DNA of 64,000 nucleotides, from contig OZ024740.1 in NCBI GenBank assembly GCA_964016885.1, positions 112,778,001 through 112,842,000 of the forward strand, given 5' to 3'. Made by a program: the position numbers and the translations under genes. This document shows, one piece after another, positions 7,033 through 60,725 of the stretch (within the stretch, counting starts at the first letter, position 1; every line of letters begins with the position of its first letter). The DNA is from Eledone cirrhosa (taxonomy: Eukaryota). Below the pieces are notes generated by a model. It was not told the origin of the DNA. It did no database searches and saw nothing but the letters and a program-made list of their open reading frames with translations.

Positions 7033-9416
7033 CAGGCATGTCAAACTGAGGATCCCCAAGGGCCGCATGTCTCACATAGGTGTTGTCTGAGGGCCGCACA
7101 CAACAAACAACTAATTGTGCACATTACAACTAATTAAAGTCATTTAATAAAATTTATTGCATAAAAATGTGTTACTTAAATTTAGAAACATACAATGTAC
7201 ATACAAATGTTTTAGCAGCATTCATGAATACAAAGTAATGAAGTGTTTGACAAAAAACTAGAATTTTAAATGGCAACATATACTTGCAGCTTGCAACAGC
7301 AACAGATACATTGTACAAAAATTACAATAGTTCAAAACTGAACATTTATTTGCTACTATTCAACCATTTTTAGTGTTTTGTCCTGAGGCTTGACACACCT
7401 TTTTGTTGACAATTTTTGGTATGTCTGACTGAAATGTCTGTACAGTTCCGACTTTGATGAGAGATGACAAGTGTTGATCAGTCAGCCTTGTTCTCTGAGA
7501 AGTTTTTGTTAATTTCATTAAGGAAAATAACTGTTCACACACATAGGTAGAATTAGACATTGCCATAATCTTTGTGGCAAACTTTCTGAAGTTTTTAAAC
7601 TTTTCAGGAAGGTATGAAATGAAACCAGGTATCCCCACTTCAAGATACTTTGCTGTGAGTGTAGAATCTGACTGCATTTCCAATAGTTCCATCTGCAGGC
7701 TTTCTTCTGCCTTGAAACATCAAAGCTGAATGGTGTTGAGAATAATGCAAACTGATGTTCAAAAGATGAGAAATCACAAAATCTTTCCTGAAATTCCTTT
7801 CACAACAATTCCAAGTGACTGTCATAATTAGCAAAGCTAAGTACAGAATCAGTATTGGCAGTTTTTTCCAGCTCTTTGCACGTAGGAAAATGAACTAAAT
7901 TTTCATTTGACAACTGTGACTTCCATAAGCTTAGTTTTCTAATAAAGCACTTGATGTCATCATTCAACCGATGAGTTTGTTTTTACCTTGTAATTTCAAA
8001 TTAAGATCAGTTAGTTGTGCAGTAATATCCACCGCAAAAGCCAGATCTTGGAGCCATCTTTTATTTCATCTGTATTTTGACCTAACATCTCCAAAAACTT
8101 AATTATTTTTTGTCTCAACAAATAGAATCTTTTCAGCACTTTGTGACATGACAACCAGTAAACTTCTGCGTAGGATGGAACATCTGTGAACTGATTATCC
8201 ATATCTTCCAACAACTGGCTGAACTGACGGTGGTTGAAAGCACGGTCTCTGATATAGTTTACTGTCTTTGTGAACAAGCTAAGCACATCATGCAATTTTA
8301 AAATCTTTGAACACAAATTTTGCTGAAGAATAATACAGTGCAAATGTACAAACGATGAATCTGGATGCGAGTTTTCTATTTTTGTTCGTAATTTGGCAGT
8401 AACACCATTATATCTGCCAACCATATTCGCAGCACCGTCAGTAGATAAGCATGCAAGTTTACTGAAATCAAAACCATAGTCATGCAGAACTTGCTCGGCC
8501 TTCTCAAAGATGTCCTGGCTTGTTATAGTGTCATGCATGGGGACCAGTTCAATCAGTTCTTCATAAATATTAAATTCACTGTTACAGGCCCTGATGAAGA
8601 ATGCAACCTGTGCTATTCCAGTGATGTCAATGGTCTCATCAATAGCAATAGAAAAATGTACAAGCCTTGATGATACAGCCTTCAACTGTTGTTTCAGATC
8701 ACCTGACATTTCATCAATCCGTTCAACAACAGTGTTCCTGGTTAATAAAATGTCTTTAAATAACTGTGCTTTCTCTGGACATAATATTTCAGCTGTTTTT
8801 ACAAAGCATTGCTTTACAAAATCTTTTCACTGTAAGATTTCTCACTCATGGCGATCATTTGGCTGAGTTCATAGCCTGCAGTAACAGAAGCAACATTCTC
8901 TTCCTGAATTTAATAAAACAGGTCTGCTGCTGTGTCAAGTTAGCCTTCAATTCTTGAGTCTTGAAACACGCATTGGGTCTTCATAATTATCGTAAGATCG
9001 ATGGTTCGTTTCATAATGCCTTTTCAAATTGTACTCTTTTGGCGTGGCGATGCAGTTGTTGCAAATTAAACAGTGTAACTTTCCGTTCACTGTTGTGCAA
9101 AAATACTGTAATTCTCACTTTTCTTGAAACACTCTCCCTTCTTCGTTCAATTTCCTTTTATCTTAGCTGGAGGAACAATAGACATTTTAAAAGAAAAAAA
9201 CGTTTGAAATTTTGAAAGAAAGTTTTCGGTTTACAACTATTAATGAGCTGCGCGTGATTCGTCGGAAGTTAAAAGTAGTTGACAAAAATCGCACAAGAAA
9301 ACAATCGTATCGAAATTTTTTATTTCATATTACGAAGAAAAAACATGCTTGCGCTGTAAAAACTTTTGTGTGGGCCGAGGGTGTGTTTGCAGAGGGCCGC
9401 ATGTTTGACATGCCTG
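7033..9416 (-). mobile_element. hAT DNA transposon (Charlie/Buster/SPIN-like), decayed
   Basis: 14-bp TIRs CAGGCATGTCAAAC (7033) and GTTTGACATGCCTG (9403-9416), subterminal AGGGCCGCA repeats. The 8-bp flanks CAGTAGAG and GTCTAGAT share a central TA. Confidence 0.92.
7360..9160 (-). pseudogene. hAT transposase (GTF2IRD2/SPIN-like), frameshifted
   Basis: FSIAIDETIDITGIAQ, STDGAANMVG, HCII, STYVCEQLFSLMK...RTRLTD dimerisation domain, split across several ORFs. Confidence 0.9.
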
Positions 9417-11069: not shown

Positions 11070-11920
11070 TTATGCCACGAAACTACGTAGTCGAGGAATC
11101 TAGGGGCAGTTTAGGTATGATTCATTTTATTACTAATTATATCTAAATGTTCCTTCTCTCTTCATAATGTATTTTTAACTCTGATACTGGTTCAGTCTAC
11201 TTCAACCGGATTGGTCTGTCCCAGTCATTCATTGAGCAAATCGGTAAGGTTAGCACCATTAACTCACGGTTGGATGTGGAAGCATTCATGTATATGTGTG
11301 TGTCCGCATGTATCTGTGTGTTTCTAAATATATTGTTCATAACTCCCTCTGGTCGAGTAATCTTTGAAGTGTGGTGACTGCTGGAAAGCTGCCATTACTC
11401 ATACTTCTCGTCTCCTTTACCACCTCTTCTACGGCTTCGATATAAATACCCCCTACGCCTCCGTGGTATTTTCTTCGGGGTTATAAGAGGCTTAGCTCTG
11501 TTTCTCGACCGTTATATCGCGTGACTATCTCCCCCTCCGCCTTTTGGGATTCTTTCTCACGTCGTGTAGACGCGTTCTTGAAGCTAGTAAAATGAGGTAT
11601 CCTCTTGATAAGTCGGCAGACCTCGCAAAGGCTCTATATCTTTATGATGTACTGTTTTTGTTTATGCCACGAAACTACGTAGTCGAGGAATCTAGGAGCA
11701 GTTTAGGTATGATACATTTTATTACTAATTATATCTAAATGTTCCTTCTCTCTTCATAATGTATTTTTAACTCTGATACTGGTTCAGTCTAGTTCAACCG
11801 GATTGGTCTGTCCCAGTCATTCATTGAGCAACATCGGTAAGGTTGGCACCATTAACTCACGGCTGGATGTGGATGCATTCATGTATATGTGTGTGTCCGC
11901 ATGTATCTGTGTGTTTCTAA

Positions 11921-12811: not shown

Positions 12812-13931
<1,120 letters not shown>

Positions 13932-13936
<5 letters not shown>

Positions 13937-16321: not shown

Positions 16322-18083
16322 ATGTTTATCGATATCGTTGAAAAAGAGGAAGCCATATTGCAAGCTAACGCCACGGCCACCAAAAATAGCGAGAAAGTGG
16401 GAACAACAATTCAAACTGTTGAACAACCCCTCCTCTCGAATGGAAAAAAGACTGTTAATTCGAGTGAAAAGCCAAATTTTGAAAAAAATAACAGGGAAAA
16501 AAATACCACAAAAGATGAAACCAACAACATTGCAACAACAAGCAACAATGAACGAAGCGAAAGCAACAAAGACAGCAAAGTTTATTTTGCCTAAACGGTC
16601 AGGAAAGCTATCAAATACAAGCCCATAGACATTACTAACGCTAAGCAGAACTTGCTAAATGCCAGAAAATACGTATCTTTTGGGGAGGATGGTTCTTTTA
16701 CGATTAACTCCCCAGAAGAAGTTCGTCAACAGGTATATAGGAATACCATAACCTTCAGGACTATATCCAACGCAACAAGAAAGCCAGCTCAATTGACAGA
16801 AAGTCAAATTGAGCTGGTTCTGAAAGACATAAAAAAAGACATACTCTTTATTGAAAGAGGAAAGCTGTATGCCAGCATTATGGTCCGAATGAAGGACGAA
16901 ATGCTGGCTCAAAAATGCTCGGTGGCACCTATAGTGTCACCACATTACACCTTCTTCCCCACATACAAAAGAAGAAGAACACAAAGACTAAGAAGGTGGA
17001 GCTCAACGCCAGAAGTAAACATCTGGTCCGTCCTGACAGAATTCACGGACCTAGAAAAGGACATCCTAATATCAGCAGGTGAGTACACCAGTGGACTGTT
17101 CGGGGGGAAAAGTCTGGAGGTTCTCTTACAGATGACACCTGAGAGAATCGCCGGAATACCCGACCGAGTACTACTGGATGGTCGAACCTTTATTAATATT
17201 ACGGTGGAAGGCAGGAGGCCCTCATGTTACCACTGCGCTGGCAGAGGTCACCTGAGGACTACCTGCCCTCTACTAACAACAAAAAAACCACTGCTACAAA
17301 CACCACAACAACAACAAAAACAACCAGCACCACCACCACAAAAACAACAAAATACACCACCATCACCACCACAACGACAACAAAAAACAACAACACCACC
17401 TCCAGCACCACCACCACAACAACAACATCAACAACAACAGCTCAAGAAAACAACCCAAAACACGGTCCCACCCAGCCCCTCCCCACAGAACACAAATACA
17501 AAAACACACGCAGTGCAAATACAAGCTGGCAATATACCCCTCCCCTCCAATACGGAAGAGGAGCTCATATCCTCGGAAGACGAGGGGGCTCCCTTCCAAA
17601 AAGTTAAAACGAAAAAACGTACATACACCACACAGAGAAAAATAACCCCACCTGACAACACAACACAGACAACAAAACGCAAGCTCACTCAAGAACAACA
17701 AGCAAAAACAAACACAACAACACAAAAAACTCTACACATACATAAACAAAAACACTAAAAACTTAACAGAAAAAATAGACAACAACCCTTCGGTACAAAC
17801 CAAAGGGCCGAATTTTGCAACAGCAACGGGACTCCCTAACCTGAAAATGGTGAAAGTCCCACTTGACATTTTCAAAACATTGAAAAACATTTACCCTGAG
17901 GACGTGGAGCCACCCTGCACCAGGCCACTCAACCGCGTCCTCCTGAAAGGTTTTCCCCTCCCCTCCTCAAACACCCCACAATTCCAAACACCCCAACCCC
18001 TCCACACACTAATAACCCCCACACACCACAACCCCCACCCCATGGAAACTGAACAGCCCGGACCCCGGGACGCAGAGAGGTAA
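16322..18083 (+). pseudogene. Tx1 ORF1 (gag-like zinc knuckle), frameshifted
   Basis: EGRRPSCYHCAGRGHLRTTCP. Similar to ORF1 of elements B and C. Confidence 0.8.
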
Positions 18084-18106
18084 GTGCCTCTTTCTTTACC
18101 ACCAAC

Positions 18107-21100
18107 ATAGCTGTGTTAAGAGTAGGTTGTCTAAATGCGCGTCGCCTGGGCTCACCTTGGAAGCAAGCTAAACTTCTAAATGACCTCAGGTCACGATGTA
18201 TAAATGTGATGGTTATTTGCGAGGCCCGGATCAGCAGCGTGCGACAACTAGCCCCCACCTTTGATGACTTTGAGATGTACGCATCTCTGTCAGCCTGGAG
18301 GTGGGGGTGGGGTTGTGGTTCTGCTGCAAAAACATCTGGGTCTCGCTACACAGACGGTACACTTGGACCCGGAGGGTCGACTCGTGGTTCTAGACCTTGG
18401 CAGTGATGAAGGCGAAGCCTTTAGGCTTGTCGCCGTTTACGCCCCCTTTGGGGCAATGCGGTCGGACTTCTTCCATCGTCTGGAGACTTTTCTAGTGACG
18501 TCCCGCTCCTTGCTTTTAGTGGGGGACTGGAATGGTATCCTAGATGCACGTTGGGACTATGTAGGGGCATGTCCCGATAGAGGGGGGTGTAACAACCTCA
18601 AGGGGCTAATCGGCCGATTTGACCTGGCCGATAGATATCGACTAGATTTTCCGACTGTGCCAACCTGGACTTGGACAAATCATAGCGGTCAATCGAGATC
18701 GTACCTAGATAGGCTCTTAGTTAGAATTAAGGATAGAGACTTTTTAAGTTGTCCAGAAATGCTCATGGTGGGCTATTCAGAGCACAAGTTAGTGATCTGC
18801 GTAGTCCACCTTGATAGAACGCATAGGCAGGGACCCGGTTACTGGAAGCTCAACTTGTCCTTACCGACAAGTAGAGCTTACAGGGACCGGATTAGAACCT
18901 TAGTTAAGGAGCGGTTGACGGGCGCCATCGTCAACAGCAGGTGGTGGGGCTCTCTAAAAAGAGAGATTAGAGTAGTTTCAATAGGAGTTAGTAAGGAGTT
19001 AGCCTCAGATAGGAAGGAAAGGGAGTTGGTAGTTAATGTTGAAGAGGCAATGAGAAGCGGCAACGTGGCCGGAGTGCAAGCGTCGAGAACGGCCTTGAGC
19101 CAGTTCTTCGACGCGAAACACGAAGGCTGCGTTGTCCGAAGCAATATACGTGCTCTGGGAAATGAGGGGACCAAAGCTGTTAGCTGGGCCCGCGTGACAA
19201 AGCCAAAAGTGGGATTAGATCCACTATCCGGTCTTTGCGAGACCAGGATGGACGGGTGATCCTTGAACCTAAGCAAATGTGCGAGGCCTTTCAAAGGCAC
19301 TTTGCCCGATTGTTCGGGAGGGGCGGGGGGGGGGGGGGGCGCCGATTGGAGATGTGGATTTCGGTCCATATCTCGACGACCTGCTGCGTCTTTCAGACAA
19401 GGAGGCGAGGTCCTGCGACGGGCCGATCTCAGCTGCTGAAATAGGGGACGTGCTGAGCCTATGCGTCAAACGCAAATCTCTAGGCCTCGATGGTCTGCCC
19501 TACGAACAATATATTAACATGCCGGACTTGTTCCCCGATCTCCTCGAGGCGGTCTACTGCAACTGGCAACAGAACGGGAGAATTCCCTGTTCTGTGACCA
19601 AGGGTGTAGTCTCGCTAGTGAGGAAGGACGAGAACAAGGGGGATGACATTAGTAATTTTAGACCCATAACTCTGCTAAATGCAGAGTTAAAGATTTTGGC
19701 CAAAGTGTTAGCGAAGAGGTTGGCGCTTGTCGTGGGGGGCCTGGTGGGAGTTGCGCAGACATGCGCTATCCCGTCCAGGTCCATCCACGACAACCTCCAC
19801 CTCATGCGATACAAATTTAGATCAGTCTAAAGCTTTCGATAGGGTGGACCATGGTTACCTAGATGCGGTGCTAGCGGCGGCTGGTTTCGAACCCGTTTTC
19901 AGGAGCTGTTCACTGCCATGCACAGCAGCCGTATCTGCTCTAGAGTCAAGGTGAACGGCTACCTCTCGGAGCCGTTCGAAATCACCCGCTCCATCCGACA
20001 GGGGTGCCCTTTCTCCTCCCTTCTGTATGTATTGGCTCTCGAGCCACTACTGCGGAAGTTGGAGTTGTTGCAGGGCATCCCTTTGGAACCGGTATTGCGC
20101 AAAGCGGTGTCGGCCTACGCCGATGACGTAACAGTAATGGTGTTGACCACCGCGGAAATCGAGGCAATCGGCACCTTACTGGAGGAGTACGAAAGGTTGA
20201 CAGGGGCTAAGCTGAACCGGGACAAGTCAGTCGCTTTGCAACTCGGCGAGTGGAGGGGCAAACCGATGTCGTCCGACGGTATCGTCGGACGGTGGACGGA
20301 GGGCCCGGTGAAGTTGCTTGGGGTGTGGTTCGGACCGGACCCCCAGGTGGAGAATAACTGGGGTGAGGTGACGAATAGGGTGCTTGCACTGACCCAGAAG
20401 TGGGTCGAGCGCAAACTATCCCTGAAAGGTCGGGCGGAGGTGGCGAACGCTTATATAGCGTCTGTCATCTATTAACGCTTGACTGTCGTGCCCTGCCCGG
20501 GTAAGATCGTCGCCAAAGTGGAGCGCGCTCTCTTTCACTTCCTTTGGAAGAAGGGGTTTCCCCTGGTGAGGAGATCCATCTGCTGTCAACACCCTTTGAA
20601 AGGAGGGCTGGGGATGCCGTGGCTAAAAATGCGTAAACACGCATTGAGGCTACGGCACCTCCAGGTATTCCTCACCGATCAACCGGTGTGGGCCCCGTTT
20701 GTGAGGCGAGCCTTCCCGAGGCTCGTCTCGCTCACCGAGCTGAAGTCCTGGGTGAAGCAAAGACCGAGAAAACCGGGCGACTGGCACACCGAGTGTGCCC
20801 AGGCGCTTACGGCTCTCTGGCAGGCGGACCCGGCTATTGGTGGAGACTCCACCTCGTCATTCTATAGAGGGCTGGTGGTTAGAAGGTGCGACGACGTCCT
20901 CGGAGAAACCCTAGGCATGGAGGAGGACGAACTGGCCAGCCTATTCGGTAGGACTTTTGGGCCGGGACTTCCAGAAGTCCTTGGCCTGGCAGTGCTACCG
21001 AGGGGCTCTGCCCGTTCAGGATAAGCTCTACAGACACGGGCGCCCGAGTAGGGACCCTTCGAAAAAGATCTGTCCCAGATGCGTGCGCGACGAGGAAACC

Positions 21101-21486
21101 GTCGCGCACGCATTGGTACACTGCCCGGGCATTGCCGATCTGTGGGGCTATGTTGAACAACTGCTGTCACGGGTGGGACCAATTAGGTTGCCCACCGAGT
21201 CAATTGTAACGATGAAGCACCCCCACCCCTCAAAAATGAAGGAGAGGCGGTCTTCCTCTGTGTAATAGCCATGGTAAAAGAGGTTGTATGGTGGACGCGT
21301 CTAAAAGGGCTGAGGTCGGACACCTTTCTTTCCGGCCAACAACTGGTCCTTTTCTTCCGATGCCATTTCGGAAGAAGGATCAGGATGGAGAGAGAGGTGC
21401 TCCACCCCAGCCAGTTTTATGAAAGGTGGGTGAAAGTTGCGAGAATGGCCCGTGTGAATGGGCCTTCTCTCTACCTCAGCCTGTAG
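18107..21486 (+). pseudogene. Tx1 ORF2 (APE endonuclease, RT), multiple frameshifts
   Basis: GDWN, SYLDR, FRPITLLN, SKAFDRV, RQGCP, YADD, CPRC...HALVHC. Confidence 0.92.
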
Positions 21487-21899
21487 GTGGAAAAGGAAGA
21501 AGGGAGCACCCTCTCTTTGTGCTCCCGTGGAGAAGAGTCGCACATTTTTTTTCGGGGGTGTGTGTGACCCCAAAACGATCCCTCCCTATTGAGGACCTTC
21601 TTGTTACAATTTTATTTATTGCATTTTTCTTACTCGATTTATATGTAACCCCCCTCCCCCCATGTACATGTCCCTTTCTTTTGTGCTCTCGTGGCAAATA
21701 AACAGAAATTTGTCTGTCTGAATGGTGTAAGGAAAGGAGATAAAACATGATTCCTTCTTCCCTTCTCTCAGGTTTTTTATTTATCCCCTTATTTTTCGTT
21801 CTCTTCACCCCCCCCGTCACACGTTTCCCTACTCAAGGGCCCTTTTTCACAATAGTTAGTCCATACTCTCTCTCTCGCGCACTGCCCTTCCGTTGTAGT

Positions 21900-25339: not shown

Positions 25340-25426
25340 CGGAGAATGCTTGGAGTTTTATATTATGGTACCATAAAGTAAACTATTGTTGAAAGAACCT
25401 GTTTATATTATTTCTAAGAGCAGGAG

Positions 25427-25833
25427 GGTGGTAATTGGCAGTATCGGTAGAGAGTCGGACACCGTCCTTTGCAGCATAGAGTTACGGCCCTTTATGGTCT
25501 GAGTTAAAAATCCAGCTGAGGTTAACTTTGTCTTTCATCCTTACCGGATCGATAAAATAAAGCACCAGTAATGCACTGGGGTCGATTTAATCGACTTTCC
25601 CCTCGCCCCAAATTACTGGCTTTGTGCCTGTACTAGAAATCATTATCTAAGGGTGGTGAATTGGCAGTATCGGTAGAGGGTCGGACATGCTTTCCAGCAT
25701 AGTTACGTCCCCTTACGATCTGAGTTCAAATCCCGCCGAGGTTAAATTTGCCTTTTATCCTTACGGGGTCGATAAAATAAAGTACCAGTAACACACTGGG
25801 TTAATTGCTGGCCTTGTGCCAAAAGTAGAAACA
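25427..25833 (+). mobile_element. Tandem dimer of tRNA-derived SINE with one 20-bp TSD
   Basis: Two monomers with A-box TGGCAGTATCGG and B-box GAGTTCAAATCC. TSD ATTATTTCTAAG(A/G)GCAGGAG at 25407-25426 and 25834-25853. Confidence 0.85.
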
Positions 25834-26621
25834 ATTATTTCTAAGGGCAGGAGTTTAAACAGTGTAACTGAAAGAAAGGAGAGGGGTGGGAGAAGGAGGG
25901 GTAAACTTCATATCCCTGGCTAGGCAGCATATTTTAGCTGCACCGTGTGGATAAAATAGCGAAAGTATTGCCGCAGAGAATACCCAATACATCAGCCACT
26001 CCACCTCACAGGGCTTTTGCTCAGGCGGGATGCACTCTTCCCGATTTTGTGGAGGAAATGGGGAGTCAGATGAGCGAGTCCATCGGAGTTCTCAACGGCG
26101 ACCGACACCAAACGGAAGCGGTTTTACTAGTCCCTGTATTTGGATATCTTCCTTTTCTTAACGTTACAGGTGGGAGTACCCGGTTTGTGACCAAGGTGAC
26201 GGAGACAAAAACTACATATAATGGTGTTTAAAAAATCTAAAACAAAAAAAGCGCACACCCCTTGAGGGAGTTTTATCTAGTAATTGCATGGAAAAATCTG
26301 AGTTAAACGAAGTTGTTTTTCAAGTAACTACATTATATATCTTGGACCGTGTGTGTGTGTGTGTGTGTGTATTTAGAGTAGAAGGAAACGGTGGAATCCT
26401 GTCGGATGTATATTGCCTGTAAATCAAAGGACCAGTCTTGTCACACATTGTGATGCTGATGATTTTCCTGAGAATACAGTAAAGGTATACATATCTGGCG
26501 AATACTCAACCACATACACGCTAATTCATGAATTGGACTTTCGGTTGATCGGACAAATAGATGCTCATCGTCGAAGCCAACGTAGAGTCCATTCTCATTA
26601 TTATCATCCTTACTGTGTATA

Positions 26622-26720
26622 TAAAATAAAGTACCAGTCACGCACTGGGGTCGATTTAATCGACTTTCCCTCCCCAAAAATTGCTAGCCTTGTGCCAAAA
26701 TCAGAAACTATTATTATCAT
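26622..26720 (+). mobile_element. SINE 3' half
   Basis: AAAATAAAGTACCAGT...CACTGGGGTCGATTTAATCGAC...GCCTTGTGCCAAAATCAGAAACTATTATT. Confidence 0.75.
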
Positions 26721-26823
26721 CCTACAGATGGTAGGCGTTCACATAAGTTTATAATATATTATGGCCGACTCAAAGGTCGACATCTGTCCGCCACTGTATC
26801 TAAATCTTTGATAAACAAATAAT

Positions 26824-27010
26824 TGTTTCTACTTTTGGCACAAGGCCAGCAATTACTCAGTTCATTACTGGTACTTTACTTTATCGACCCCGTAAGGATG
26901 AAAGGCAAAGTTAACCTCGGCGGGATTTGAACTCAGAATGGCAAGGGCCGTAACTCTATGCGTTAAAGCATGGCGTCCGACCCTCTACCGATACTGCCAA
27001 TCCACCGCCC
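26824..27010 (-). mobile_element. Full-length tRNA-derived SINE with 17-bp TSD
   Basis: TSD TTTGATAAACAAATAAT at 26807-26823 and 27011-27027. A and B boxes are on the minus strand. Confidence 0.9.
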
Positions 27011-27448
27011 TTTGATAAACAAATAATCCTTGAAAATCTGCTCAATATTTCTAGTTCACAAATTTCAGCCAGCTTCTGGCCTCAAGATCATTTCTATATA
27101 TTTTTCTTATGTATAAATTACATAAATTAAAATAAACACAAACATGTTTACTTTCGTTCTATTTTTATAAAAGGAACGGAATGTGAAAATATCAAAATAT
27201 ATGTATGTATGTATGTATGTATCTATGTATGTAATTGTGTGTATGTATGTATGTGAGTATATATGTATGTATATGAGTATGTGTGCATGTCTATATGTAT
27301 GTGTCAATGTATGTATGTATGTATGTATGTATGTATGTATGCATGCATGTGAGCAGGTATGTATGTATGTATGTATGTATGTATGTATGTATGTATGTAT
27401 GTATGTGAGTATGTATGTATGTGAATATGTATGTATGTATGTATGTAT

Positions 27449-29506: not shown

Positions 29507-30296
29507 ATTTGAACTTTCGAAGCATTGAGATAGAAAATTTAGGAAAACTCAAAAGCAGTAAAACAAATATATATATTGTAAATATGCATTAACACAAAAC
29601 AGTTTATTTTGTTTATTTGTGTTGTGTATGGATCCACTCTATACATTTTAAACTGTTTATTTTGACTCATAAATCCCAAATTGATGATTCTTCAGTCGCC
29701 TTCGTTTGAATATCTTCACTGTTGATGAGATGGTCATGTCAAGAGTAAATATTGGCCTGAAGAAATTAAACAAATCTGTTTTTTTTTTTTTATTCAAAAT
29801 ATTTATCCGTTTATCCCTTGTAATTATTTTCCTTACATATAAACACTCCACGTTTGATGGAAAGCGGTTGTTTGAATTATGTAAAAACATAATAGGAACA
29901 GATAATGCAACCCGCCTCACCACACACAAAAAAATCAATAAAGAAATACAAAAGAAAAAAACACTGGAAAAACGGCAACAACAACATCAACGACAGAAAA
30001 GTAATCACACTACTATATTTAAAAAAATATATATCTCTTCATGAATAAAACAAATATTGTGAAAGAACCTTCTCAATTTCTTCCCTTGAAATAATAGCAG
30101 ACAATACGTTTTATTTTAAGCCAGCGGGGAATGATTCTTTCTTGAAAAAGCAATTACTCGGAATTACTCAGAGAAAATGAAAATTTGGAACAATTTTCTG
30201 TCATCAAAAGTTTGTGAGTTAACGACATTTTCAAATTTTTTTCTTGTGTATGTATGTATGTATGTATGTATGTATGTATGTATGTATGTATACTGT

Positions 30297-31105
30297 CAGG
30301 TCACCAATTGGTGCTACTGGTAAAATGTATCCCAGTACAACCTGTCCCATGGTCGGGTCGTTGGCGACTAAACTGGCAACCCCACCAAGGTTTCTTGGTG
30401 AGGAGGGTGACTTTGGACATCCTGCAGGACTAAAAACAAAACTTGTCAAAGGGCAAAGGAGCTCTTAAGAGTCAATGGCCATCCAAAATTACCGGGAGAG
30501 ATGATCCCTTAGCCTTTGTCAAGGCAGAATTCTAGGAGAAGGAAAACTCTGATATAACACCTGCAACCCTGATGGTATCCAATGATGTTTACTTGTTCTT
30601 CTTTTTGGTAAATATCATATTGGTTAAGAGAGTGGGACTGGCTTTGTGCAGTGCCTTTGCTCACTATAAAAGCTTCACGGCACAGGCATTGCTTTATATC
30701 TGGAGATCTCTCTGCACTTGTCGTCAGATGGTACCATGGGCCCAGCACTATGTGTCAATAATTGTCACAAGTGTAGTGTTTGTACCAGAGTTTTCAAGAC
30801 GCTGGCTGGACTAAAAGGTCACACTCGTTCAGCGCATCGGTAGGGGTTCTCCTACATGGATATAAAGTAATGGCCGTACTCGAAAACGAGTTGGCAGCCA
30901 TCATGTATGTATGTATGTATGTATGTATGTATGTATGTATGTATGTATGTATGTATGTATGCATGTATGTATGCATATATGTATGTAACTATCTATGTAT
31001 GTATGTATGTAACTATGTATGTATATATGTATGCATGTATGTATGCATCTATGTATGTATGTATGACCGTATGCATGTATGTATGCATGTATGTATGTAT
31101 GTATT
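30297..31105 (+). mobile_element. Bipartite RTE-like non-autonomous element with (ATGT)n tail
   Basis: Near-identical to 339-945 and preceded by (ATGT)n. Confidence 0.75.
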
Positions 31106-38375: not shown

Positions 38376-38782
38376 TCATTAAATTACCCAAGACACCTCC
38401 AACGAGATATACCTTGGAGGAGGCCAGCTAAACCTGCATAGGTGTGAGCTGTCACACACACACACACACGCACACACACGCGCGCATATATATGTATAAA
38501 TAATAATAATAATAATAATGATTTCATTTATTGGCCACAAGGGCCGACATATAGGGGACAATACAAAAGACTGGGACAGTGGGGTTTTACAGAAAAATCG
38601 AGAAAACAATATGAATAAACAAAGTAACAATAAAGTAACAAGAAAATTACAACAAGAAACCATTCCCCAATAGGGGGGGGATGACCCCCTAGGGTTCGCT
38701 CAGGTATCCCACCAGTCCTGAACGACCCGAGGCTTAGAGAGAACCCTGGAAGGGCACCCCTCTCCTCTTCAAATTTACCTAC

Positions 38783-41700
38783 CTACAGCCGCATGACCAG
38801 AGTAGGCCCACTCACACGGGCCATTCTCGCCACATTCACCCACCTTTCAGCAAATGTACTGGGAGGGGGGGGGGGGGCAGCACTTCTCTCTCCACCCTCA
38901 CCTTCCTTTCCAAGTGAAACTTGAAAAAATTGACGGGGGATTGGCCGAAGAGAAAAGTGTCTGTCTTCAGTCCTTTCAACCTCGTCCACCATACAACCTC
39001 TTTCGCTACTGCCACCAGACAGGAAAATTCCCTGCCCTTCCTGGCCAAAAGAAGGCGGCGGGTCGATCTTCACTATGGACTCGGCCGATAGCCGGATCCG
39101 TTCTACACGCGACAACAGCTGTTTGACATAACTCCACAAGTCAGTAATGCACGGACACTGGACGAGTGCGTGCAGAACGGTTTCGTCGCTCTGCGCGCAT
39201 CTCGGGCAGGTCCGTCTGACAGCACTTCCGTGCCTGTAGAGTTATCTCGAACCGGTAGTGCCCCCCGGTAGCACTGCCAAGCGAGGGATTTTTGGAAATT
39301 ATCCATCGTCCCCGGCTCGAAAGTCTTCCGGTACAGACTGGTTAGTTCAACTTCGTTGACTCCCAGAGCCTCTCCGAGTGCGTCGTCGCACTTGCCCACC
39401 ACTATAGAACTCGAGAGTGGAAGTTCCACTGACCGCATTGCCCGCTTGGTAGAGGGCAGTGAGTGCCTGGCAACATTCCAGATGCCAGTCACCCAGTCTC
39501 GGTCTCTTCTTGACCCAGGACTGCAACTCAGTCAAAGAAACGAGCTGCAGAAAGGCCCGTCTGACAAACGGCGACCACACCTGTTCACCGTTTAGGCAGA
39601 ATATCTGGAGATGCCGCAGCCTCAGCGCGTGCCTGCGCATCATTAGCCACGGCATGCCCAGCCCTCCACGTAGAGGGTGCTGGCAGCAGATGGACCGCCT
39701 CACCAGCGGAACCTGACCCCTCCACAAGAATTTGAAGAGGAGCCGCTCCAAGATGGCGAGGCGCGAACGGGGGCAAGGGACGACAGTCAGACAGTAGTAG
39801 ATGACGGACGCGATGTACGCGTTCGCCACCTCCGCCCGACCTTTCAGTGATAGCTTTCTCCCAGCCCATTTCTGGGTGAGACTGACTACCCTGCCCGTCA
39901 CCTCGTCCCAATTCTTACCCACCTGGAGGTCTGGCCCGAACCAAACCCCTAACAACTTTACCGCTCCGTCCGTCCAGCGCCTAACGACGCTGTTGGACGG
40001 CACGGACTTGCCTCTCCAGGTACCGAGTTGCAAGACCACTGACTTTCCGGGTTAAGTTTTGCTCCCGTCAACCTTTCATATTCCTCCAATAAGTTGCCGA
40101 CCACCTCGATTTCTGAGGTGTCCGACACCATCACGGTGATGTCGTCCGCATAAGCCGACACAGCCTTTCCGCGTCCCGGTTCGAGTGGGATGCCCTGCAA
40201 CAGCTCCAGCTTCCGCAGTAAAGGCTCGAGAGTCAATACGTACAGAAGGGAGGTGAGAGAGCACCCTTGACGGACCGATCGGGGGACCTGAAACGGTTCC
40301 GAGAGGTGACCATTAATTTTGACCACCGAGCAGGTGCCGCTGTGCATTGCAGCGATCTAGCTTCTGAAGACGGGGCCGAAGCCAGCCGCCTTGAGGACAG
40401 CCTCCAGGTACCGATGGTCGACCCTATCGAATGCTTTAGATTGATCTAAATTGATCAGAGCCCCACCGAAGCCAGGTTTACACCCTACCCTCTCTATGAT
40501 GTATCGCATTAGGTGGAGGTTGTCGTGTATGGACCTGGTTGGGATTGCACAAGTTTGCGCCTCCCCAACCAAATCCCCGACGACAAGCGCCAACCTCTTC
40601 GCTAACACCCTGGCCAAAATCTTAAACTCTCTGTTGAGCAGAGTTATGGGCCTGAAATTGTCTAATGTGTCCCTCTTGTTCTCGTCTTTCCTTATCAGCG
40701 TCACTACGCCCCGGCTCACAGAACTGGGAATACTCCCGTTTTGCTGCCAGTTGCAGTAGAGCGCTTCGAGGAGATTGGAGAACAAGTCTGGCATATTTAC
40801 GTAAAGCTCGTAGGGCAGACCATCCAAACCGGGTGACTTGCGCCTCATGCAGCCTACAAGGGCATTCTGAATCTCGGCTGAAGTAATTGGCCTTTCGCAG
40901 CGCCCAGTGTTAGCGTCGAGAGTTGCGGCAAGCCTTCGAGGTAGGGACTGAAGTCCGCCACCATCTCTGACCCGCCACTTCCCCCGAACAACCGAGCAAA
41001 ATGTTGGCGAAAGGCCTCACACATCCTTTTGGAATCGCTCAGAGGAGCCCGTCTCGGTCCGTCAAAGACCGAATCGTGGTTTTATTACCACGCCGCGCCT
41101 CTGCCACGCGGGCCCATCGGACAGCTTTGGTTCCCTCGTTTCTCAGAGCACGCGCCTTAGCTCTGACAATGCAACCTTCGTGTTTCGCATTGAAGAAATG
41201 GTCTAATGCCATTCTCGCCGCTACCACATCAGTTGCAATGCCACTACCAATAGCCTCGTCTAACTTATCTACCAGCTCTCCCTCCTTTCTATTTTTCTCT
41301 AATGCTACTTCTTTGCTAAACTCTATCGACATTACTCTAATCTCTCTTTTGAGAGCCCCCCCACCATCTATTGTTGACGACTCCCCCTGTCAACTTTTTC
41401 TTAACTAAATTGTTGACCTGGTCCCTGTAAGCCTTACGTGCCGGAAATGACATGTTTAGCTTCCAGTAACCAGGTCCTAACCTACGCGTCTTATCTAGGT
41501 CGACCATACAGATCACAAACTTGTGATCTGAATAGGCGACCGTTTCAAAACGTGGACAGCTTACACTATTTCTGTCTATTTTCCTAATGAATATCCTGTC
41601 TATATACGATCTAGATGACCCTATGCGGTTAGCTCAGGTCCACACTGGCGCATTAGGGAAATCTAGTCGGTACCTCTCAGACAGTTGGAACTGGCTGATC

Positions 41701-42161
41701 AGGTTCTTGAGACTTTTGCACCCCCCGCTCCTATCGGATACTCTCACACAGTCCCAGCGTGCGTCTAAGATGCCGTTCCAGTCCCCCGCTAACAGTAAAG
41801 GGCGAGACGTACCCAGAAAGGCTTCCAGGCCTCTAAAGAAGTCCGGCCGTCCTGCCCCAGTAGGAGCATAGACGGCCACCAGGCACCACCTTCATTATTG
41901 TTCACGTCCAGGACCACAAACTTCCCGTCCAGGTCCCGGAAGATCGACCTTACCTCGAGATCCAGGCCTTTCCTAAACAGCACTGCCACCCCGCCTCCCA
42001 TTCCCGGCTGGCTAACAGATGCAAATATCTGATAGTCGTCGAAAATCGCTGACTGCAATTACATCCATTTCTATAGACCTGAGGTCGTTGAGCAGGTGAC
42101 CCTGCTTCCAGGACGACCCCAGGCCTCGAACATTTAAACATCCTACTCTTAATACGGCCAT
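38783..42161 (-). pseudogene. Tx1 ORF2 (EN-RT), frameshifted
   Basis: Fragments closely similar to 44641-48060 (GDWN, KSPGLDG, QSKAFDRV, YADD). Confidence 0.92.
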
Positions 42162-42192
42162 GTTGGCAGGTTAAACACAGAGAGAGGAAGGT

Positions 42193-44159
42193 TTACTTCC
42201 CTTCCGGGCTCTTGTGAAGGTCGGGTTGTTCGACCTCCATAGTTAGTGGGGTTTCTTTTGGGAACCCCTTTAAAAGTCTTGAAGTGGGTGTTACGTTCGG
42301 GGTTCCCACGTCCCGAGGAAAGCTGTCTCGTATTTCTTTGAATATGTCGAGCCACATTCGCACCAGAACCAAATCTTCCGGCACGCGAAATGTGCCCTAT
42401 TTAAACATTTCCCCCTCTTTTTGTATATTTTCACTTCGTGCTACGAGGGCCATCAGTTCCTTGTCGGCCCTCCTGACGAGCACGAAGTTTTGTATATTTT
42501 GTTGGTGTGATTTTATTTGTTTGCGTGGCTGTGGTGTTGATGGTTTTGGTGGTGTTGTTTCGGTTGTATCTGTGTTTGTTGTGAGTGCGATGTCTGTGGT
42601 TTCAGATGTTTGTGTGTATATTTGTTCTTGCGTCTGTTTCGGTTGTTTTCGTTTGGGGGATTCTGGTGATGGTGGTGGTGGTGTTGATGTTGGTGTTATT
42701 GGAGAGATGTTTGCGTGGGTGGTGTCTGCGTTTTTTTATTGTGGGCGCTTTTGTGCTTTGTTGAGCTTTTTTTTTTCTTTTTGTGTTTCCTTTTTTTGTA
42801 TTTTGGGGGATTTTGGATTTCCCTCATCTTCACTACTGGTAGATGAAAGGATCTGTGTCTGTAAGTGTGTTTGTATGTATGTTTAAGGTTTTATTGGTGT
42901 GTGTAATTTTGGGAGGAGGGGGAATTTGACAGCTTTCCTCGTTTCCCCCCTGGGTGGTCAATGTTGGTGGTGTTTTTTCTATTGGTGTTGTTGTTGGTGG
43001 TTTTACCGGTGCAGGTGTTGGTTGTGATATTCGCCTCGGCGTCGGCAGCAGTGGAGCCTTTTGACCCCTTGCCTCTTTCAGCAGTTGAGGGCAGAAGGCC
43101 CGCAAATGGGTTTTTCCCCCCACAAACAAAACACTGCGGCCTTTTGCCTTCGGTCATAATGTGAATGACCGTCCCATTCTGAAGTCGGATATGGTCTGGG
43201 ATTGTCTTCACATTCTCGGGCCTGATCTGGAGAAGGATCTCCAGGTCAACCCCGGACCAGTCCTCTCTGGCTGTTCTGGTCACTTCTATAGGGACTGTAT
43301 CCGTCCCCTCCACAATCACACATCCCAGAAGCCACCACATGTCAAGTCCTGGTGGGATTCAGGGAATGCGGAGACGGGCCGTTCTTTTTCCCATGTGGGA
43401 GGAGTACATTATGACCTTGCTGGTTTTGCAAGGAGTCATGGCGTGTTTCATCGCGAGGGCTTCTGACTTGAACAACACCGAAATGGTGCCGTACTGTCTG
43501 CCCCTCTCTATGTACTGGGTGTCTTCTCTGATGCACCTCAGCGCGACTTCGATATCTTCTTGTTGGATTAAAGCTTCCCTTTTGGTCTGTGCTGAGATGC
43601 ATCTATAATGCACCGTTTGCGCTCCACTGCCTCAATAGCTTCTACCGGGACAGTTAAGTTGGCCCAAGTTTGCTCTAGCTTGATGAGCTTCCATGCCTGG
43701 GCCAACTTTTCATCTTTGTTTGAGAGGTCCATGTTGAAGCATGGCCTCTTTTTTGCTGCTGCCGCAGCGAAAGTGGTCTTGTTTTCGTTGGGGGTGTTGT
43801 TGACGTTGTTCTTGTTGGTGTTGTTGTTAAGCACTGTCGCTGTTATCATTGTTGTCTTTGCTGCCACCGTTGTTCTCGGTGCAGTTGGTGTTGTCGCTAT
43901 TTGTTTTCATGTTAGTGGTGTTGATATTGTTGTTGTATTTGTTATTTTTTTTTTTGTTATCTGTATTTTCGTTGTCGCTGTTACTGTCATTTTTTTTCAA
44001 ATTAGAGTTCTTATTGGTATCATTGGTGTCTTTGTTTACCTTGTTTGTGGTGGTGTTTGTGTTATCAATGTGTGTTAATTTCGCTGTAGCGCTCTGCTCA
44101 ACTTCTACGTCGTTGTCGCACGACAGCCGACATATTGCTGGGGGGCGTGGCTCAGCCAT
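42193..44159 (-). pseudogene. Tx1 ORF1, disrupted
   Basis: MAEPRP start, EGKRPQCFVCG knuckle, ends PEGK*. Confidence 0.85.
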
Positions 44160-44640
44160 GTTTTTTTTCTTCGTAAATTTTTTACCATGTAAAAAAAGTT
44201 CAAATATTTGGGCCAAAAGGCCCAAATATTATTATTTCCCCTTCACGGGGCAAAGTCTAAGGGCTTATATCCCTTATACAACAAGAAATATTTAACAACA
44301 AATAATTTAAACAGGCAAATAAAGCGACTTACTGTGAGCGAGCAAAATACGTCCGCTTAGACCAATAATAATAATAATAATAATAATGATTTCATTTATT
44401 GGCCACAAGGGCCGACATATAGGGGACAACACAATAGACAGGGACAGTGGGGGTTTACATAGAGATCGAGTAAGTATAAATAACAAAAAAACAAAATAAC
44501 AATAAAAATACAACAATGAAAGTTCCCCAATAAGAGGGATCACCACCCAGGGTTGACTCAAGCACCCCACCAGTCCTGAGCCACCCGACGCTCCTAGGGC
44601 ACCCGGGAAGGGCACCCCTCTCCTTCTCGAATTCACCAGC

Positions 44641-47600
44641 CTACAGGCGCATGATCAGAGTAGGCCCACTCACGCGGGCCATTCTCGCCACATTCACCCA
44701 CCTTTCAGTAAATGTACTGGGGGGCAGCACTTCTCTCTCCACCCTCACCTTCCTTTCCAAGTGAAACTTGAAGAAGTTGATGAGGGATTGGCCGAAGAGA
44801 AAAGTGTCTGTCTTCAGTCCTTTCAACCTGGTCCACCATGCAACCTCTTTCGCTACTGCCACCAGGCAGAGGAAAATTGCCTGCCCTTCCTGACCAAAAG
44901 AAGGCGGCGGGTCAATCTTCACTATGGACTCGGACGATAGCCGGATCCGTTCTACACGCGACAATAGCTGTTCGACATAACCCCACAAGTCAGCAATGCA
45001 CGGACACTGGACGAGTGCGTGCAGAACGGTTTCGTCGCTCTGCGCGCATCTCGGGCAGGTTCGTCTGACAGCACTTCCGTGCCTGTAGAGTTTATCCCGA
45101 ACCGGCAGCGCCCCCCGGTAGCACTGCCAAGCGAGGGATTTCTGGAAGTTATCCATCGTCCCCGGCTCGAAAGTCCTCCGGAACATACTGGTAGGTTCTA
45201 CTTCGTTGACGCCCAGAGCCTCTCCTAGTACGTCATCGCACTTGCCCTCCACTAATCCTCTATAGAAATCTTGAGTGGAAGTTCCACTGACCGCATTGCC
45301 CACCTTGCAGAGTGCAGTGAGCGCCTGGCAACATTCCAGATGCCAGTCGCCCAGTCTCGGTCTCTTCTTGACCCAGGACTGCAGCTCAGTCAAAGAGATG
45401 AGCTGCGGAAAGGCCCGTCTAACAAACGGCGACCACACCTGTTCACCGTTTAGGCAAAATATCTGGAGATGTCGCAGCCTCAGCGCATGTCTGCGCATCA
45501 TTAGCCACGGCATGCCCAGCCCTCCACGAAGAGGGTGCTGGCAGCAGATGGCCCGCCTCACCAACGGGACCCGTCCCCTCCACAAAAATTTGAAAAGGAG
45601 CCGTTCCAAATTGGCGAGGCGTGGACGGGGGCAAGGCACGACGGTCAGGCGGTAGTAGATGACGGACGCGATGTACGCGTTCGCCACCTCCGCCCGCCCT
45701 TTCAGTGATAGCTTTCTCTCAGCCCATTTCTGGGTGAGGTTGGCTATCCTGCTCGTCACCTCGTCCCAATTCTTATCCACCTGGAGGTCTGGTCCGAACC
45801 AAACCCCGAGCAACTTTACCGGTCCGTCTGTCCAGCGCCCAACGACGCTGTTGGACGGCATGGACTTGCCTCTCCAGGTGCCGAGCTGCAAGCCCACCGA
45901 CTTTTCCGGGTTAAGTTTTGCTCCCGTCAACCTTTCATATTCCTCCAAATGGGTGCGGATCACCTCGATTTCCGAGGTGTCCGACACCATCACGGTGATG
46001 TCGTCCGCATAAGCGGACGCAGCCTTTCTACGTCCCGGTTCGAGCGGGATGCCCTGCAACAACTCCAGCTTCCGCAGTAGAGGCTCAAGAGTCAATACGT
46101 ACAGAAGTGAGGAGAGAGGGCACCCTTGACGGACCGATCGAGAGATCTGAAACGGTTCCGAGAGGTGGCCATTAACTTTGACCACCGAGCGGATGCCGCT
46201 GTACATTGCAGCGATCCAGCTTCTGAAGACGGGGCCGAAGCCAGCCGCCTCGAGGACAGCCTCCAAGTACCGATGGTCGACCCTATCGAATGCTTTCGAT
46301 TGATCTAAATTGATCAGAGCCCCACCGAAGCCAGGTTTGCACCCAACCCTCTCTATGATGTATCGCATGAGGTGGAGGTTGTCGTGTATGGACCTGGTCG
46401 GGATTGCGCAAGTTTGCGCCTCCCCAACCAAATCTTTGACGACAAGCGCCAACCTTTTCGCTAACACCTTGGCCAAAATCTTAAACTCTGTGTTGAGCAG
46501 GGTTATGGGCCTGAAATTATCTAGTGTGTCCCTCTTGTTCTCGTCTTTCCTTATCAGCGTCACTACGCCACGGCTCACAGAACTGGGAATGCTCCCGTTC
46601 TGCTGCCAGTTGCAGTAGAGCGCTTCGAGGAGATCGGAGAACAAGTCTGGCATATTTACGTAAAGCTCGTAGGGCAGACCATCCAAACCGGGTGACTTGC
46701 GACTCGAGCAGCCGACAAGGGCGTCCTGAATTTCGGCTGATGTTATCGGCTCTTCGCAGCGCTCAGCGTCGGCCGTCGAGAGGCGTGGCAAGCCGTCGAG
46801 GTAGGGACTGAAGTCCGCCGCCGTCTCCGACTCACCCATCCTCCCGAACAATCGAGCAAAGTGCTGGCGAAAGGCCTCACACATCCGCTTGGAATCGCTC
46901 AGTTCGTGTCCATCTCGATCCGTCAAAGACCGAATTGTGGTTTTATTTCCACGCTGCGTCTCTGCAAAGCGAGCCCATCGGGCAGCTTTGGTTCCCTCGT
47001 TCCTCAGAGCACGCGCCTTAGCTCTGACAATGCAACCTTCGTGTTTCGCATTGAAGAAATGGTCTAGTGCCATTCTCGCCGCTAGCACGTCTGTTGCAAT
47101 GCCACTACAAATAGCCTCGTCTAACTTAGCTATCAGCCCCTCCTCCTTTCTATTTTTCTCTATTGCTACTTCTTTGCTAAATCCTATCGAGGTTGCTCTA
47201 ATCTCTCTTTTGAGTGCCCCCCACCACCTGTTGTTGACAACCCCCCCTGTCAACTTTTGCTTAACTAAGTTGTTGACCCGGTCCCTGTAAACTTTACGTG
47301 CCGGAAACGACATGTTTAGCTTCCAGTAGCTAGGTCCTAACCTACGTGTCTTATCTAGGTCGACCATACAGATCACAAGCTTGTGATCTGAATAGGCAAC
47401 CGTTTTAAAATGTGGACATCCTACACTATTTCTATCTCTTTTCCTAATGAAAATCCTATCTATGTACGATCTAGATGACCCTATGCGATTGGTCCAGGTC
47501 CATACTGGCGCATTAGGGAAATCTAGTCGGTACCTGTCAGACAGTTGAAACTGGCTGATCAGGTACTTGAGGCTTTTGCACCCCCCGCTCCTATCAGATA

Positions 47601-48060
47601 CTCCCACACAATCCCAGCGTGCTTCTAAGATGCCATTCCAATCCCCTATTAACAGTAAAGGGCGAGACGTAAGCAGAAAGTTTTCCAGGCGCCTAAAGAA
47701 GTCCGGCCGACCGGCCCCAGTAGGGGCGTAGACGGCCACCAGTCTAAAGGCACCACCTTCGCTATTGCTCACGTCCAGGACCACCAACTTTCCGTCAGGA
47801 TCCCGGAAGATTGACCTTACCTCGAGATCCAGACATTTCCTAAACAGCACAGCCACTCCACCTCCCATTCCCGGCCGACTAACAGATGCAAAGATCTGAT
47901 AATCGTCGAAAATCGGCGCCAGTGCGCGTGTGTCGGAAATTCTGGTCTCGCTGATGGCAATTACATCCATTCCTAGTGACCTGAGGTCGTTGAGCAAGTG
48001 ACCTTGCTTCCAGGGCGACCCCAGGCCACGAACATTTAAACTTCCTACTCTTATGGCCAT
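44641..48060 (-). CDS. LINE ORF2: APE endonuclease, reverse transcriptase and C-terminal CCHC (1139 aa)
   Basis: SLNVRGL, SET, VYAP, GDWN, SYIDRIF, SDH; FRPITLLN, DQSKAFDRV, RQGCPLS, YADD, LGV; CPRC..ETVLHALVQC. Confidence 0.97.
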   Translation of the reverse strand: MAIRVGSLNVRGLGSPWKQGHLLNDLRSLGMDVIAISETRISDTRALAPIFDDYQIFASVSRPGMGGGVAVLFRKCLDLEVRSIFRDPDGKLVVLDVSNSEGGAFRLVAVYAPTGAGRPDFFRRLENFLLTSRPLLLIGDWNGILEARWDCVGVSDRSGGCKSLKYLISQFQLSDRYRLDFPNAPVWTWTNRIGSSRSYIDRIFIRKRDRNSVGCPHFKTVAYSDHKLVICMVDLDKTRRLGPSYWKLNMSFPARKVYRDRVNNLVKQKLTGGVVNNRWWGALKREIRATSIGFSKEVAIEKNRKEEGLIAKLDEAICSGIATDVLAARMALDHFFNAKHEGCIVRAKARALRNEGTKAARWARFAETQRGNKTTIRSLTDRDGHELSDSKRMCEAFRQHFARLFGRMGESETAADFSPYLDGLPRLSTADAERCEEPITSAEIQDALVGCSSRKSPGLDGLPYELYVNMPDLFSDLLEALYCNWQQNGSIPSSVSRGVVTLIRKDENKRDTLDNFRPITLLNTEFKILAKVLAKRLALVVKDLVGEAQTCAIPTRSIHDNLHLMRYIIERVGCKPGFGGALINLDQSKAFDRVDHRYLEAVLEAAGFGPVFRSWIAAMYSGIRSVVKVNGHLSEPFQISRSVRQGCPLSSLLYVLTLEPLLRKLELLQGIPLEPGRRKAASAYADDITVMVSDTSEIEVIRTHLEEYERLTGAKLNPEKSVGLQLGTWRGKSMPSNSVVGRWTDGPVKLLGVWFGPDLQVDKNWDEVTSRIANLTQKWAERKLSLKGRAEVANAYIASVIYYRLTVVPCPRPRLANLERLLFKFLWRGRVPLVRRAICCQHPLRGGLGMPWLMMRRHALRLRHLQIFCLNGEQVWSPFVRRAFPQLISLTELQSWVKKRPRLGDWHLECCQALTALCKVGNAVSGTSTQDFYRGLVEGKCDDVLGEALGVNEVEPTSMFRRTFEPGTMDNFQKSLAWQCYRGALPVRDKLYRHGSAVRRTCPRCAQSDETVLHALVQCPCIADLWGYVEQLLSRVERIRLSSESIVKIDPPPSFGQEGQAIFLCLVAVAKEVAWWTRLKGLKTDTFLFGQSLINFFKFHLERKVRVEREVLPPSTFTERWVNVARMARVSGPTLIMRL

Positions 48061-48089
48061 GCTGGCAGGATGAATGGGAGAGGAAAGGT

Positions 48090-49993: not shown

Positions 49994-50282
49994 GTTTTTT
50001 TTGAGAAAAAAATTATGATTTTTCCAAAATAAAGTTCAAATATTTGGGCCAAAAGGCCCAAATATTATGAGTTATTCCTTCACAGGATACAAATTAATGT
50101 CTTATAATGCTTCAGCGGTACAAAAAATAAACAATTCTCTACAATTAATCCTCAAAAAATTGCTTACTCACGGAGCTTCAAAAAACGTACATCCACTTTC
50201 GTCAATAATAATAATAATAATAATATTTATACTTAATCTATATACAATTATAAATAAGAAAGGGTAATAGTTTGTATTACCC

Positions 50283-54756: not shown

Positions 54757-54857
54757 TTTCTACTTTGGGCACAAGGCCACCAATTATCCCAGTGCATTAC
54801 TGGTACTTTATTTTATCGACCCCGTAAGAATGAAAGGCAAAGTTAACCTCGGCGGGA
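54757..54857 (-). mobile_element. 5'-truncated SINE next to (AAT)n
   Basis: Matches 26824-26925. Confidence 0.85.
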
Positions 54858-55022
54858 ATAATAATAATAATAATGATTTCATTTATTAGCCACAAGGACC
54901 GACATGTAGGGGACAATACAAAGACAGGGAGAGTGGGGTTTACAATAAGGTCGAGTAAAAGTGTACAATGGCAAGACTAATTTAACAATGAAGATATAAA
55001 AATATAAAATAAACTATGCATA
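54858..55022 (-). mobile_element. Tx1 3'UTR fragment (B/C type)
   Basis: (AAT)nGATTTCATTTATTAGCCACAAGGACCGACATGTAGGGGACAATACAAAGAC, matching 38520-38590. Confidence 0.85.
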
Positions 55023-55023
55023 A

Positions 55024-60690: not shown

Positions 60691-60725
<35 letters not shown>

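Follow-up and report, generated by a model that had tools for sequence, protein, structure and literature searches.

Which enzyme copies an abundant short repeat of this genome is the question raised by the 64,000-nucleotide stretch of Eledone cirrhosa DNA analysed here (the window). The sharing of a 3′ tail between a SINE and its LINE is textbook knowledge, and a preliminary description of the window had proposed, from a hairpin loop and a target motif found in both, that a stringent-type Tx1 element mobilizes an abundant tRNA-derived SINE.

LINEs and SINEs of the window

The window contains five related LINEs (A to E), one Tx1 3′ fragment and five tailed SINE copies (Table 1). The ORF2 of element C has endonuclease, reverse transcriptase (RT) and zinc finger domains (Pfam PF03372, PF00078 and PF13966); its ORF1 is split over two frames in this copy, and a relative (L318) has one frame of 642 aa with a CCHC knuckle. 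In phmmer comparisons, the C ORF2 reached 343 bits with the Tx1 ORF2 of Xenopus (P0317; 30% over 900 aa), 196 bits with human L1 ORF2 and 82 bits with R2, the Tx1 and L1 values being taken at equal database size. By this measure the window LINEs are Tx1-like, since their ORF2 is closer to Tx1 than to L1. The Xenopus match was reached via a search through a turtle protein, the initial homolog search having given no Tx1 name; among named sequences, one from Argonauta hians comes closest to the LINE ORF2 (69% across the RT region).

Elements B and C end, as previously described, in GGCC-CTTGT-GGCC followed by AATAAA, GAAATC and (ATT)n, and the ends given for the 3′ fragment and for element A were likewise confirmed. 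Two Tx1 ends absent from the preliminary description, those of D (AGCC/GACC) and E (6-nt loop), fit worse. The D end is a mutated copy (seven family relatives read GGCC), and a longer-loop register for the Tx1 hairpin, taken from element D, was rejected because family relatives restore the 5-nt-loop register. Element B begins right behind the (ATT)n tail of C. Head-to-tail chains of Tx1 copies, at 38520-50203 and 54755-62336 of the window, recur in many of the fetched loci; they arise as every (ATT)n tail offers a fresh site for insertion.

The SINE is short (about 185-215 bp) and non-coding, with A and B boxes. Its designation as a tRNA-SINE held in part: both boxes were found in three window copies, judged against the A/B box consensus, but ARAGORN and Rfam returned no tRNA in the window. 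The SINE heads beat 300 of 300 shuffles when compared with some tRNA-like repeats, mostly at the boxes, in a comparison comprising 14 tRNA-like loci only. The SINE may be one of the octopus SINEs OK, OR1 and OR2. The end TGGC-CTTGT-GCCA ascribed to it is present in two of the five tailed window copies (S2 and S4) and not in the other three, which have TAGC at 26685, an end in GCCC at 54767 and the loop TTTGT at 25617.

S2 lies directly behind the ATTAT following S1, and a shortened copy of the duplication enclosing both lies at 25642-25653. Where two measurable SINE duplications, of 17 and 20 bp, had been reported, we observed three: the one of 20 bp stands with one mismatch, that of 17 bp is in fact 18 bp and exact, and a third, of 13 bp, flanks S3. 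All three begin with ATTATT, as stated before, but genome-wide the start is ATTAT in 64 of 69 duplications and the longer ATTATT in only 47 of 69.

The window also holds an open reading frame on the minus strand (8011-8826) whose DUF4371 match is weak and falls short of the Pfam cut-off, possibly a remnant of a hAT-like transposase; long near-perfect inverted repeats of 259 and 410 bp (97%) at 11070-11920 and 12946-13932; and a 760-bp repeat at 292-1050 and 30247-31009.

Table 1. Tx1-like elements, SINE copies and target duplications in the window
Feature	Position	Strand	Remarks
Tx1-like element A, other family	16595-21712 (5′ boundary approximate)	+	hairpin 21684-21696, TGCT-CTCGT-GGCA; short TGTC tail, not ATT
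20-bp duplication around S1+S2, 5′ copy	25407-25426	+	3′ copy 25834-25853, one mismatch
SINE copy S1, longer subtype	25427-25641	+	A box 25436, B-box-like 25501
S1 hairpin	25617-25629	+	loop variant TTTGT
SINE copy S2, short subtype	25651-25833	+	A box 25662-25673, B box 25722-25731, hairpin 25809-25821
SINE copy S3, 5′-truncated	26610-26709	+	13-bp duplication 26597-26609 / 26710-26722
SINE copy S4	26824-27009	-	hairpin 26836-26848; 18-bp exact duplication 27010-27027 / 26806-26823
Tx1-like element B	38520-44362	-	about 85% identical to C; ORF2 interrupted; hairpin 38533-38545
Tx1-like element C, 5.8 kb	44388-50203	-	ORF2 44641-48093, 1150 aa; hairpin 44401-44413; (ATT)n on both sides
SINE copy S5, 5′-truncated	54755-54857	-	directly behind (ATT)n tail of the Tx1 3′ fragment
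Tx1 3′ fragment	54875-54959	-	hairpin 54888-54900, stem GGTC/GGCT
Tx1-like element D	55048-60689 (5′ boundary approximate)	-	ORF2 interrupted; end 55060-55072; starts after E tail
Tx1-like element E, decayed	60754-62336 (5′ boundary approximate)	-	6-nt loop variant, (ATC/ATT)n tail

The 3′ end of the SINE and of the Tx1-like LINEs

The SINE is as abundant as had been claimed: its exact tail pattern occurs 179,511 times in the 3.0-Gb genome (pattern control, 0), and 57 copies with body and tail were found in 600 kb of evenly spaced genome sample. Complete heads are present in 137 of 205 copies, the remainder including 5′ truncations, and the median divergence from the SINE's own majority is 4.2%. 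Family C is one of many Tx1 families in the genome, which lie mostly 0-3% from their nearest neighbour. Its youth is seen in the last 326 bases, identical in 40 of 40 scored matches, and in the 34 fetched C-type loci, all of which share 98.8-99.7% identity with C along some 5-6 kb (a full-length comparison with C as reference, leaving five family-F loci and one other unplaced).

We observed that the last ~30 bases of the SINE match the 3′ end common to the genome's Tx1-like LINEs. Twelve Tx1 and eight SINE end variants align without gaps through the stem, the CTTGT loop, a fixed spacer, GAAA and ATTAT, family C having one extra base. Families D and H match the SINE end at 17-18 of 26 positions and family F at 14-16; family C, in which the extra base shifts the register, matches at 12-14. 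The CUUGU loop is thus common to both, as the preliminary description held, and the likeness extends beyond the loop on different stems that it described, taking in the spacer length and the GAAA before ATTAT. The stretch is short, with a stem of only 3 bp. The top scorer against each of three SINE variants among 2,804 random 30-mers lying before ATTAT was a Tx1 tail, and 0-1 of the 2,804 reached the score of family D.

A stem of 4 bp, as first drawn, was not borne out: the fourth pair is formed in 61 of 99 Tx1-type and 113 of 190 SINE tails, which leaves a conserved stem of 3 bp. Pair 1 is C-G in both SINE and Tx1; pair 2 is C-G in 93 of the 99 Tx1-type tails and G-C in 172 of the 190 SINE tails; and pair 3 is G-C, or A-T in 10 family-F tails. 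Compensatory double changes are therefore found in two of the three conserved pairs, in few independent events. These tails were picked with a loop-like pattern, so that loop counts in the set are biased. The suggested check for covariation gave a score of 0.40 against at most 0.09 in slid controls (20 hand-picked variants), a value inflated by related rows and reflecting two or three independent events. In SINE copies selected by their body (109 alignable of 130), the stem-loop and GAAA columns are conserved at 0.87-0.98 and spacer columns down to 0.56-0.88, variation concentrating in the spacer and pair 4. The predicted probability of the hairpin in nine SINE variants is 0.73-0.98 in four, among them the three commonest, 0.49 in one and 0.04-0.15 in four; for Tx1 it is at least 0.8 in seven of nine variants folded and 0.01 in the one family-F example, a truncated copy.

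The loop is also conserved across Tx1. Among 10,133 loop-agnostic matches to ATT-type Tx1 ends, 7,954 (78%) carry the exact loop at the same distance (pattern control, 0), and other-tail Tx1-type ends contribute a further 7,585 matches (control, 9); in most of 30 such loci a Tx1-like ORF2 lies upstream and the tail is (TATC)n or (TA)n. Every Tx1 family here has the hairpin, which is not specific to B and C, and it is only the target that points to the ATT families as partner. In B, C, D, F and G one endonuclease segment has the sequence NRIGSSRS or NRIRSSRS; in A, whose tail is of another type, it is NHSGQSRS. By analogy with L1, this segment may set the target. The other-tail loci (L091-L120) come from several Tx1-like families that share the hairpin, end in (TATC)n or (TA)n and have flanks to match; one of them (L097) shows a clean 20-22-bp duplication.

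These features bear on whether the hairpin matters at all. Tx1 might move the SINE in a relaxed manner, by pairing of AUUAU with the target alone, the hairpin being baggage or serving LINE 3′ processing near AATAAA; a hairpin that is identical in Tx1 families with different targets confers no family specificity, the stem is weak, and the SINEU-Tx1 pairs described in PMC4494074 have poly(A) tails. However, the SINE tail, unlike the Tx1 ends, has no AATAAA and yet has kept stem, loop, spacer length and GAAA, and the double change preserves pair 2. Moreover, SINE copies stop at ATTAT, with the next TTTT a median of 86 nt downstream, which suggests a start set from the hairpin. We thus regard relaxed recognition as unlikely, and infer stringent-type recognition by Tx1 from the conserved tail. 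The stop at ATTAT is compatible with priming at an internal site or with source genes whose terminator lies close by.

Target sites and the candidate partner

An exact duplication of at least 11 bp was found in 89 of 196 SINE copies, and 69 of those 89 begin exactly at the SINE end; the clean ones (n = 44) span 11-20 bp. A mismatched-flank control gave 0-3 cases in 20 rounds, compared with 57 observed. A pyrimidine, C or T, precedes the site in 36 of 40 cases (background 57%, p 7e-6), and in 33 of the 36 copies that themselves end in A. As the pyrimidine is present even where the SINE ends in A, annealing alone is no full explanation, which points to endonuclease choice as well. The SINE target core is Y/ATTAT, with duplications of 11-20 bp. 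As empty-site controls, one ATT-rich stretch of a dispersed repeat contains three SINEs, and seven other copies of it are empty, and four SINE insertions lie at one ATTATT site of the CR1 3′ UTR.

The Tx1 families have target preferences of their own, in that ATT or TATC flanks match each family's tail. Among truncated ATT-family copies, the 5′ junction is an ATT run or ATTATT in 11 of 17 rows (one duplicate) and lacks ATTATT in six; in other-tail families it is TATC-like in 12 of 18 rows (40 of 57 ATT-family and 12 of 30 other-tail rows being too long for the 5′ end). All 33 readable full-length C-type copies sit behind (ATT)5 or more, part of which can belong to the element itself (L334); one further C-type copy was unreadable at the 5′ end. 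The comparison of targets and ages proposed for SINE and Tx1 gave a common ATTAT core and overlapping divergence, but the SINE occupies isolated sites far more often: (ATT)3 starts only 12 of 67 SINE duplications, whereas Tx1 copies are mostly in ATT runs. The use of isolated sites might be due to the SINE RNA pairing over a shorter stretch.

The same difference would suit a partner that is an extinct or unsampled Tx1 family, with a SINE-type stem and a looser target, rather than B, C, D or F, as would the ~22% of loop-agnostic ATT-type ends without the exact motif. No LINE with the exact SINE stem plus AATAAA was found, however: of 13 genome matches none has ORF2 upstream, and one (L365) is a chimera of a SINE stem with a Tx1-C end. 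SINE copies 1-3% from the majority need a recently active partner, and this chimera and a site where a Tx1 fragment and a SINE have a common 16-19-bp duplication (L019) involve families C and F. We consider such a family improbable.

None of ten rival LINE ends (three CR1/L2-like, five RTE-like and two R4-like) fits the SINE tail as well as the Tx1 ends do; a better fit would have spoken for a different partner. The ten score 1-17, and five Tx1 ends 18-32. The top RT matches in the genome belong to a young family ending in (ATT)n, which we take to be CR1-like from its motifs; its RT is 92-99% identical among 30 copies and its tail has 2,663 exact matches. Could this or another non-Tx1 LINE move the SINE, the Tx1 likeness being old or accidental? 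Its youth, abundance and (ATT)n end would suit the role, and CR1 and RTE dominate the known SINE pairs (PMC3747384). Its hairpin, GTGC-ACCTGA-GCAC, differs from that of the SINE, however, and its tail scores no higher than background. Of the CR1 junctions that could be measured (BLAST ends, hence approximate; 32 of 60 rows were too long), 0 of 28 show a non-repetitive duplication of at least 11 bp starting with ATTAT. RTE-like ends are TGAA, CTGAGT or GAT repeats, and R4-like ends are (AAT)n on the opposite strand, both unlike the SINE tail. A non-Tx1 partner from the clades compared is thus improbable. An ATT tail had to be discarded as proof of partnership, because the CR1-like family shares this tail type; the diagnostic evidence is the long duplication with a pyrimidine before ATTAT.

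A Dong/R4-like match was also rejected, as ATT/AAT runs are in common but the orientation is opposite. The RTE-like and R4-like clade names are our assumption from PF20049 and sequence motifs. Two Dong/R4-like (AAT)n families share ATT/AAT runs with Tx1 copies, the two kinds meeting tail to tail (L032, L034, L053, L061, L063, L067 and L073), one microsatellite being used from opposite strands by two unrelated enzymes.

Given the overlapping ages, the common motif and the target, the SINE and Tx1 form a well-supported candidate pair. We propose, with a probability of roughly three in four, that the SINE is copied in trans by the ORF2 protein of ATT-family Tx1 elements through target-primed reverse transcription, hairpin binding fixing the start at AUUAU. 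Pol III would transcribe the SINE, and the ORF2 protein of ATT-tailed families would probably recognize and bind the small hairpin in its RNA. The endonuclease would nick the opposite strand at ATAAT/R, a step from pyrimidine to purine like that cut by L1; the freed 3′ end would pair with AUUAU ~12 nt past the stem and prime reverse transcription, and a second nick 11-20 bp on would give rise to the target duplication. The SINE would need no repeat tail of its own.

Three further observations concern SINEs and tRNA-like repeats. Pairs of SINEs in tandem, with three copies of one duplication, were seen at L006, L014, L015, L026, L191, L216 and L237; at L014 the duplication takes in part of the head of the older copy, and thus re-insertion occurred at the upstream site copy. 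At L315 (1500-1800, minus strand), a second tRNA-headed repeat runs into an RTE-like (GAT)n-type end, and is likely to form a second SINE-LINE pair with that LINE. A dispersed repeat on several chromosomes (L303-L313, ~1500-1573) contains a tRNA-like gene with identical flanks and varying anticodons (mostly GGC; also GAC, AGC, GGT and GTC), which suggests a transposon-borne tRNA or pseudo-tRNA.

Comparison with known SINE-LINE pairs

The literature searched holds no Tx1-SINE pair that shares a tail; Repbase, Dfam and SINEBase, which were outside the search, may record one. In the parts of the 2012 survey consulted, three of 58 pairs are L1-tailed SINEs, all from plants or algae, which makes tail-sharing in the L1 clade rare; its Table 1 lists no Tx1 partner and gives no LINE partner for OK, OR1 and OR2 (PMC3747384). 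These abundant, tRNA-derived octopus SINEs were described by Ohshima and Okada in 1994 (cited in PMC4758252 and PMC4824008). SINEs make up 11.6% of the O. vulgaris genome, for which L1-Tx1 is in the list of recently active elements and no partner is mentioned in the supplement (PMC13282606). The partners given for bivalve SINEs are CR1, CR1-Zenon, L2 and Nimb. The sections covered of PMC5786205 contain no occurrence of Tx1 or octopus; further SINE/LINE literature covered in part was PMC8967140, PMC5381603 and PMC11481361.

In these sources, as far as they were available, only the crocodilian SINEU is described as mobilized by Tx1. There, too, the link between SINEU and Tx1-Mar comes from a shared target and overlapping ages (Kojima 2015, PMC4494074). 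The heads of SINEU are of snRNA type, its tails are poly(A), and its case rests on target, age and shared heads (PMC4494074), whereas the present SINE has a tRNA-like head and the 3′ hairpin end itself is shared with Tx1. A Tx1-SINE link by target was therefore already known, and a Tx1-SINE pair sharing a structured tail may be new; if the proposed pairing is true, it would be the first. The Kibi, Koshi and crocodilian TTCC/TTTC families of Tx1 target microsatellites, as do those described here, which use (ATT)n and (TATC)n; the passages seen of PMC4494074 mention no partner SINE for Kibi and Koshi.

Among L1-clade elements, maize ZmSINE2/3 with LINE1-1_ZM and Chlamydomonas SINEX-3 with L1-1_CR have shared 3′ ends, as here, and in the maize pair the hairpin has compensatory changes (PMC3472496, PMC3747384). 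These stringent L1-clade pairs are from plants and algae only, in contrast to the animal Tx1 of the present case, which, if true, would supply the missing animal example for the idea that recognition in the L1 clade was ancestrally stringent. With its covarying hairpin, a Tx1 pair allows the model of a stringent ancestor to be tested on the animal side, in the sister branch of L1. We lean towards a wider picture in which animal Tx1 is stringent and one 3′ hairpin persists through a whole radiation for RNA recognition, with endonuclease and tail repeat shifting the target together, a tRNA-type SINE having taken the hairpin, dropped the poly(A) signal and joined the most abundant repeats of an octopod genome. 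A likely engine would thereby be named for the SINE expansion that marks octopus genomes, and the Tx1 families with different targets form a ready-made series in which to see how target choice depends on endonuclease and tail. Retrotransposition assays are realistic because the LINE family, with all 40 scored 3′ ends identical, is very young.

The closest structural parallels are eel UnaL2/UnaSINE and zebrafish ZfL2, in which, as here, a small 3′ stem-loop precedes a short repeat (PMC4176376). In UnaL2 and ZfL2, assays showed that the loop is specific and the stem exchangeable, and the pattern of conservation suggests the same for the SINE described here. Those elements belong to the L2 clade and their recognition is assay-shown, whereas the present pair, of the Tx1 clade and with a 3-bp stem, is known from sequence. 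Unlike in the UnaL2 and ZfL2 pairs, one loop here serves many LINE families.
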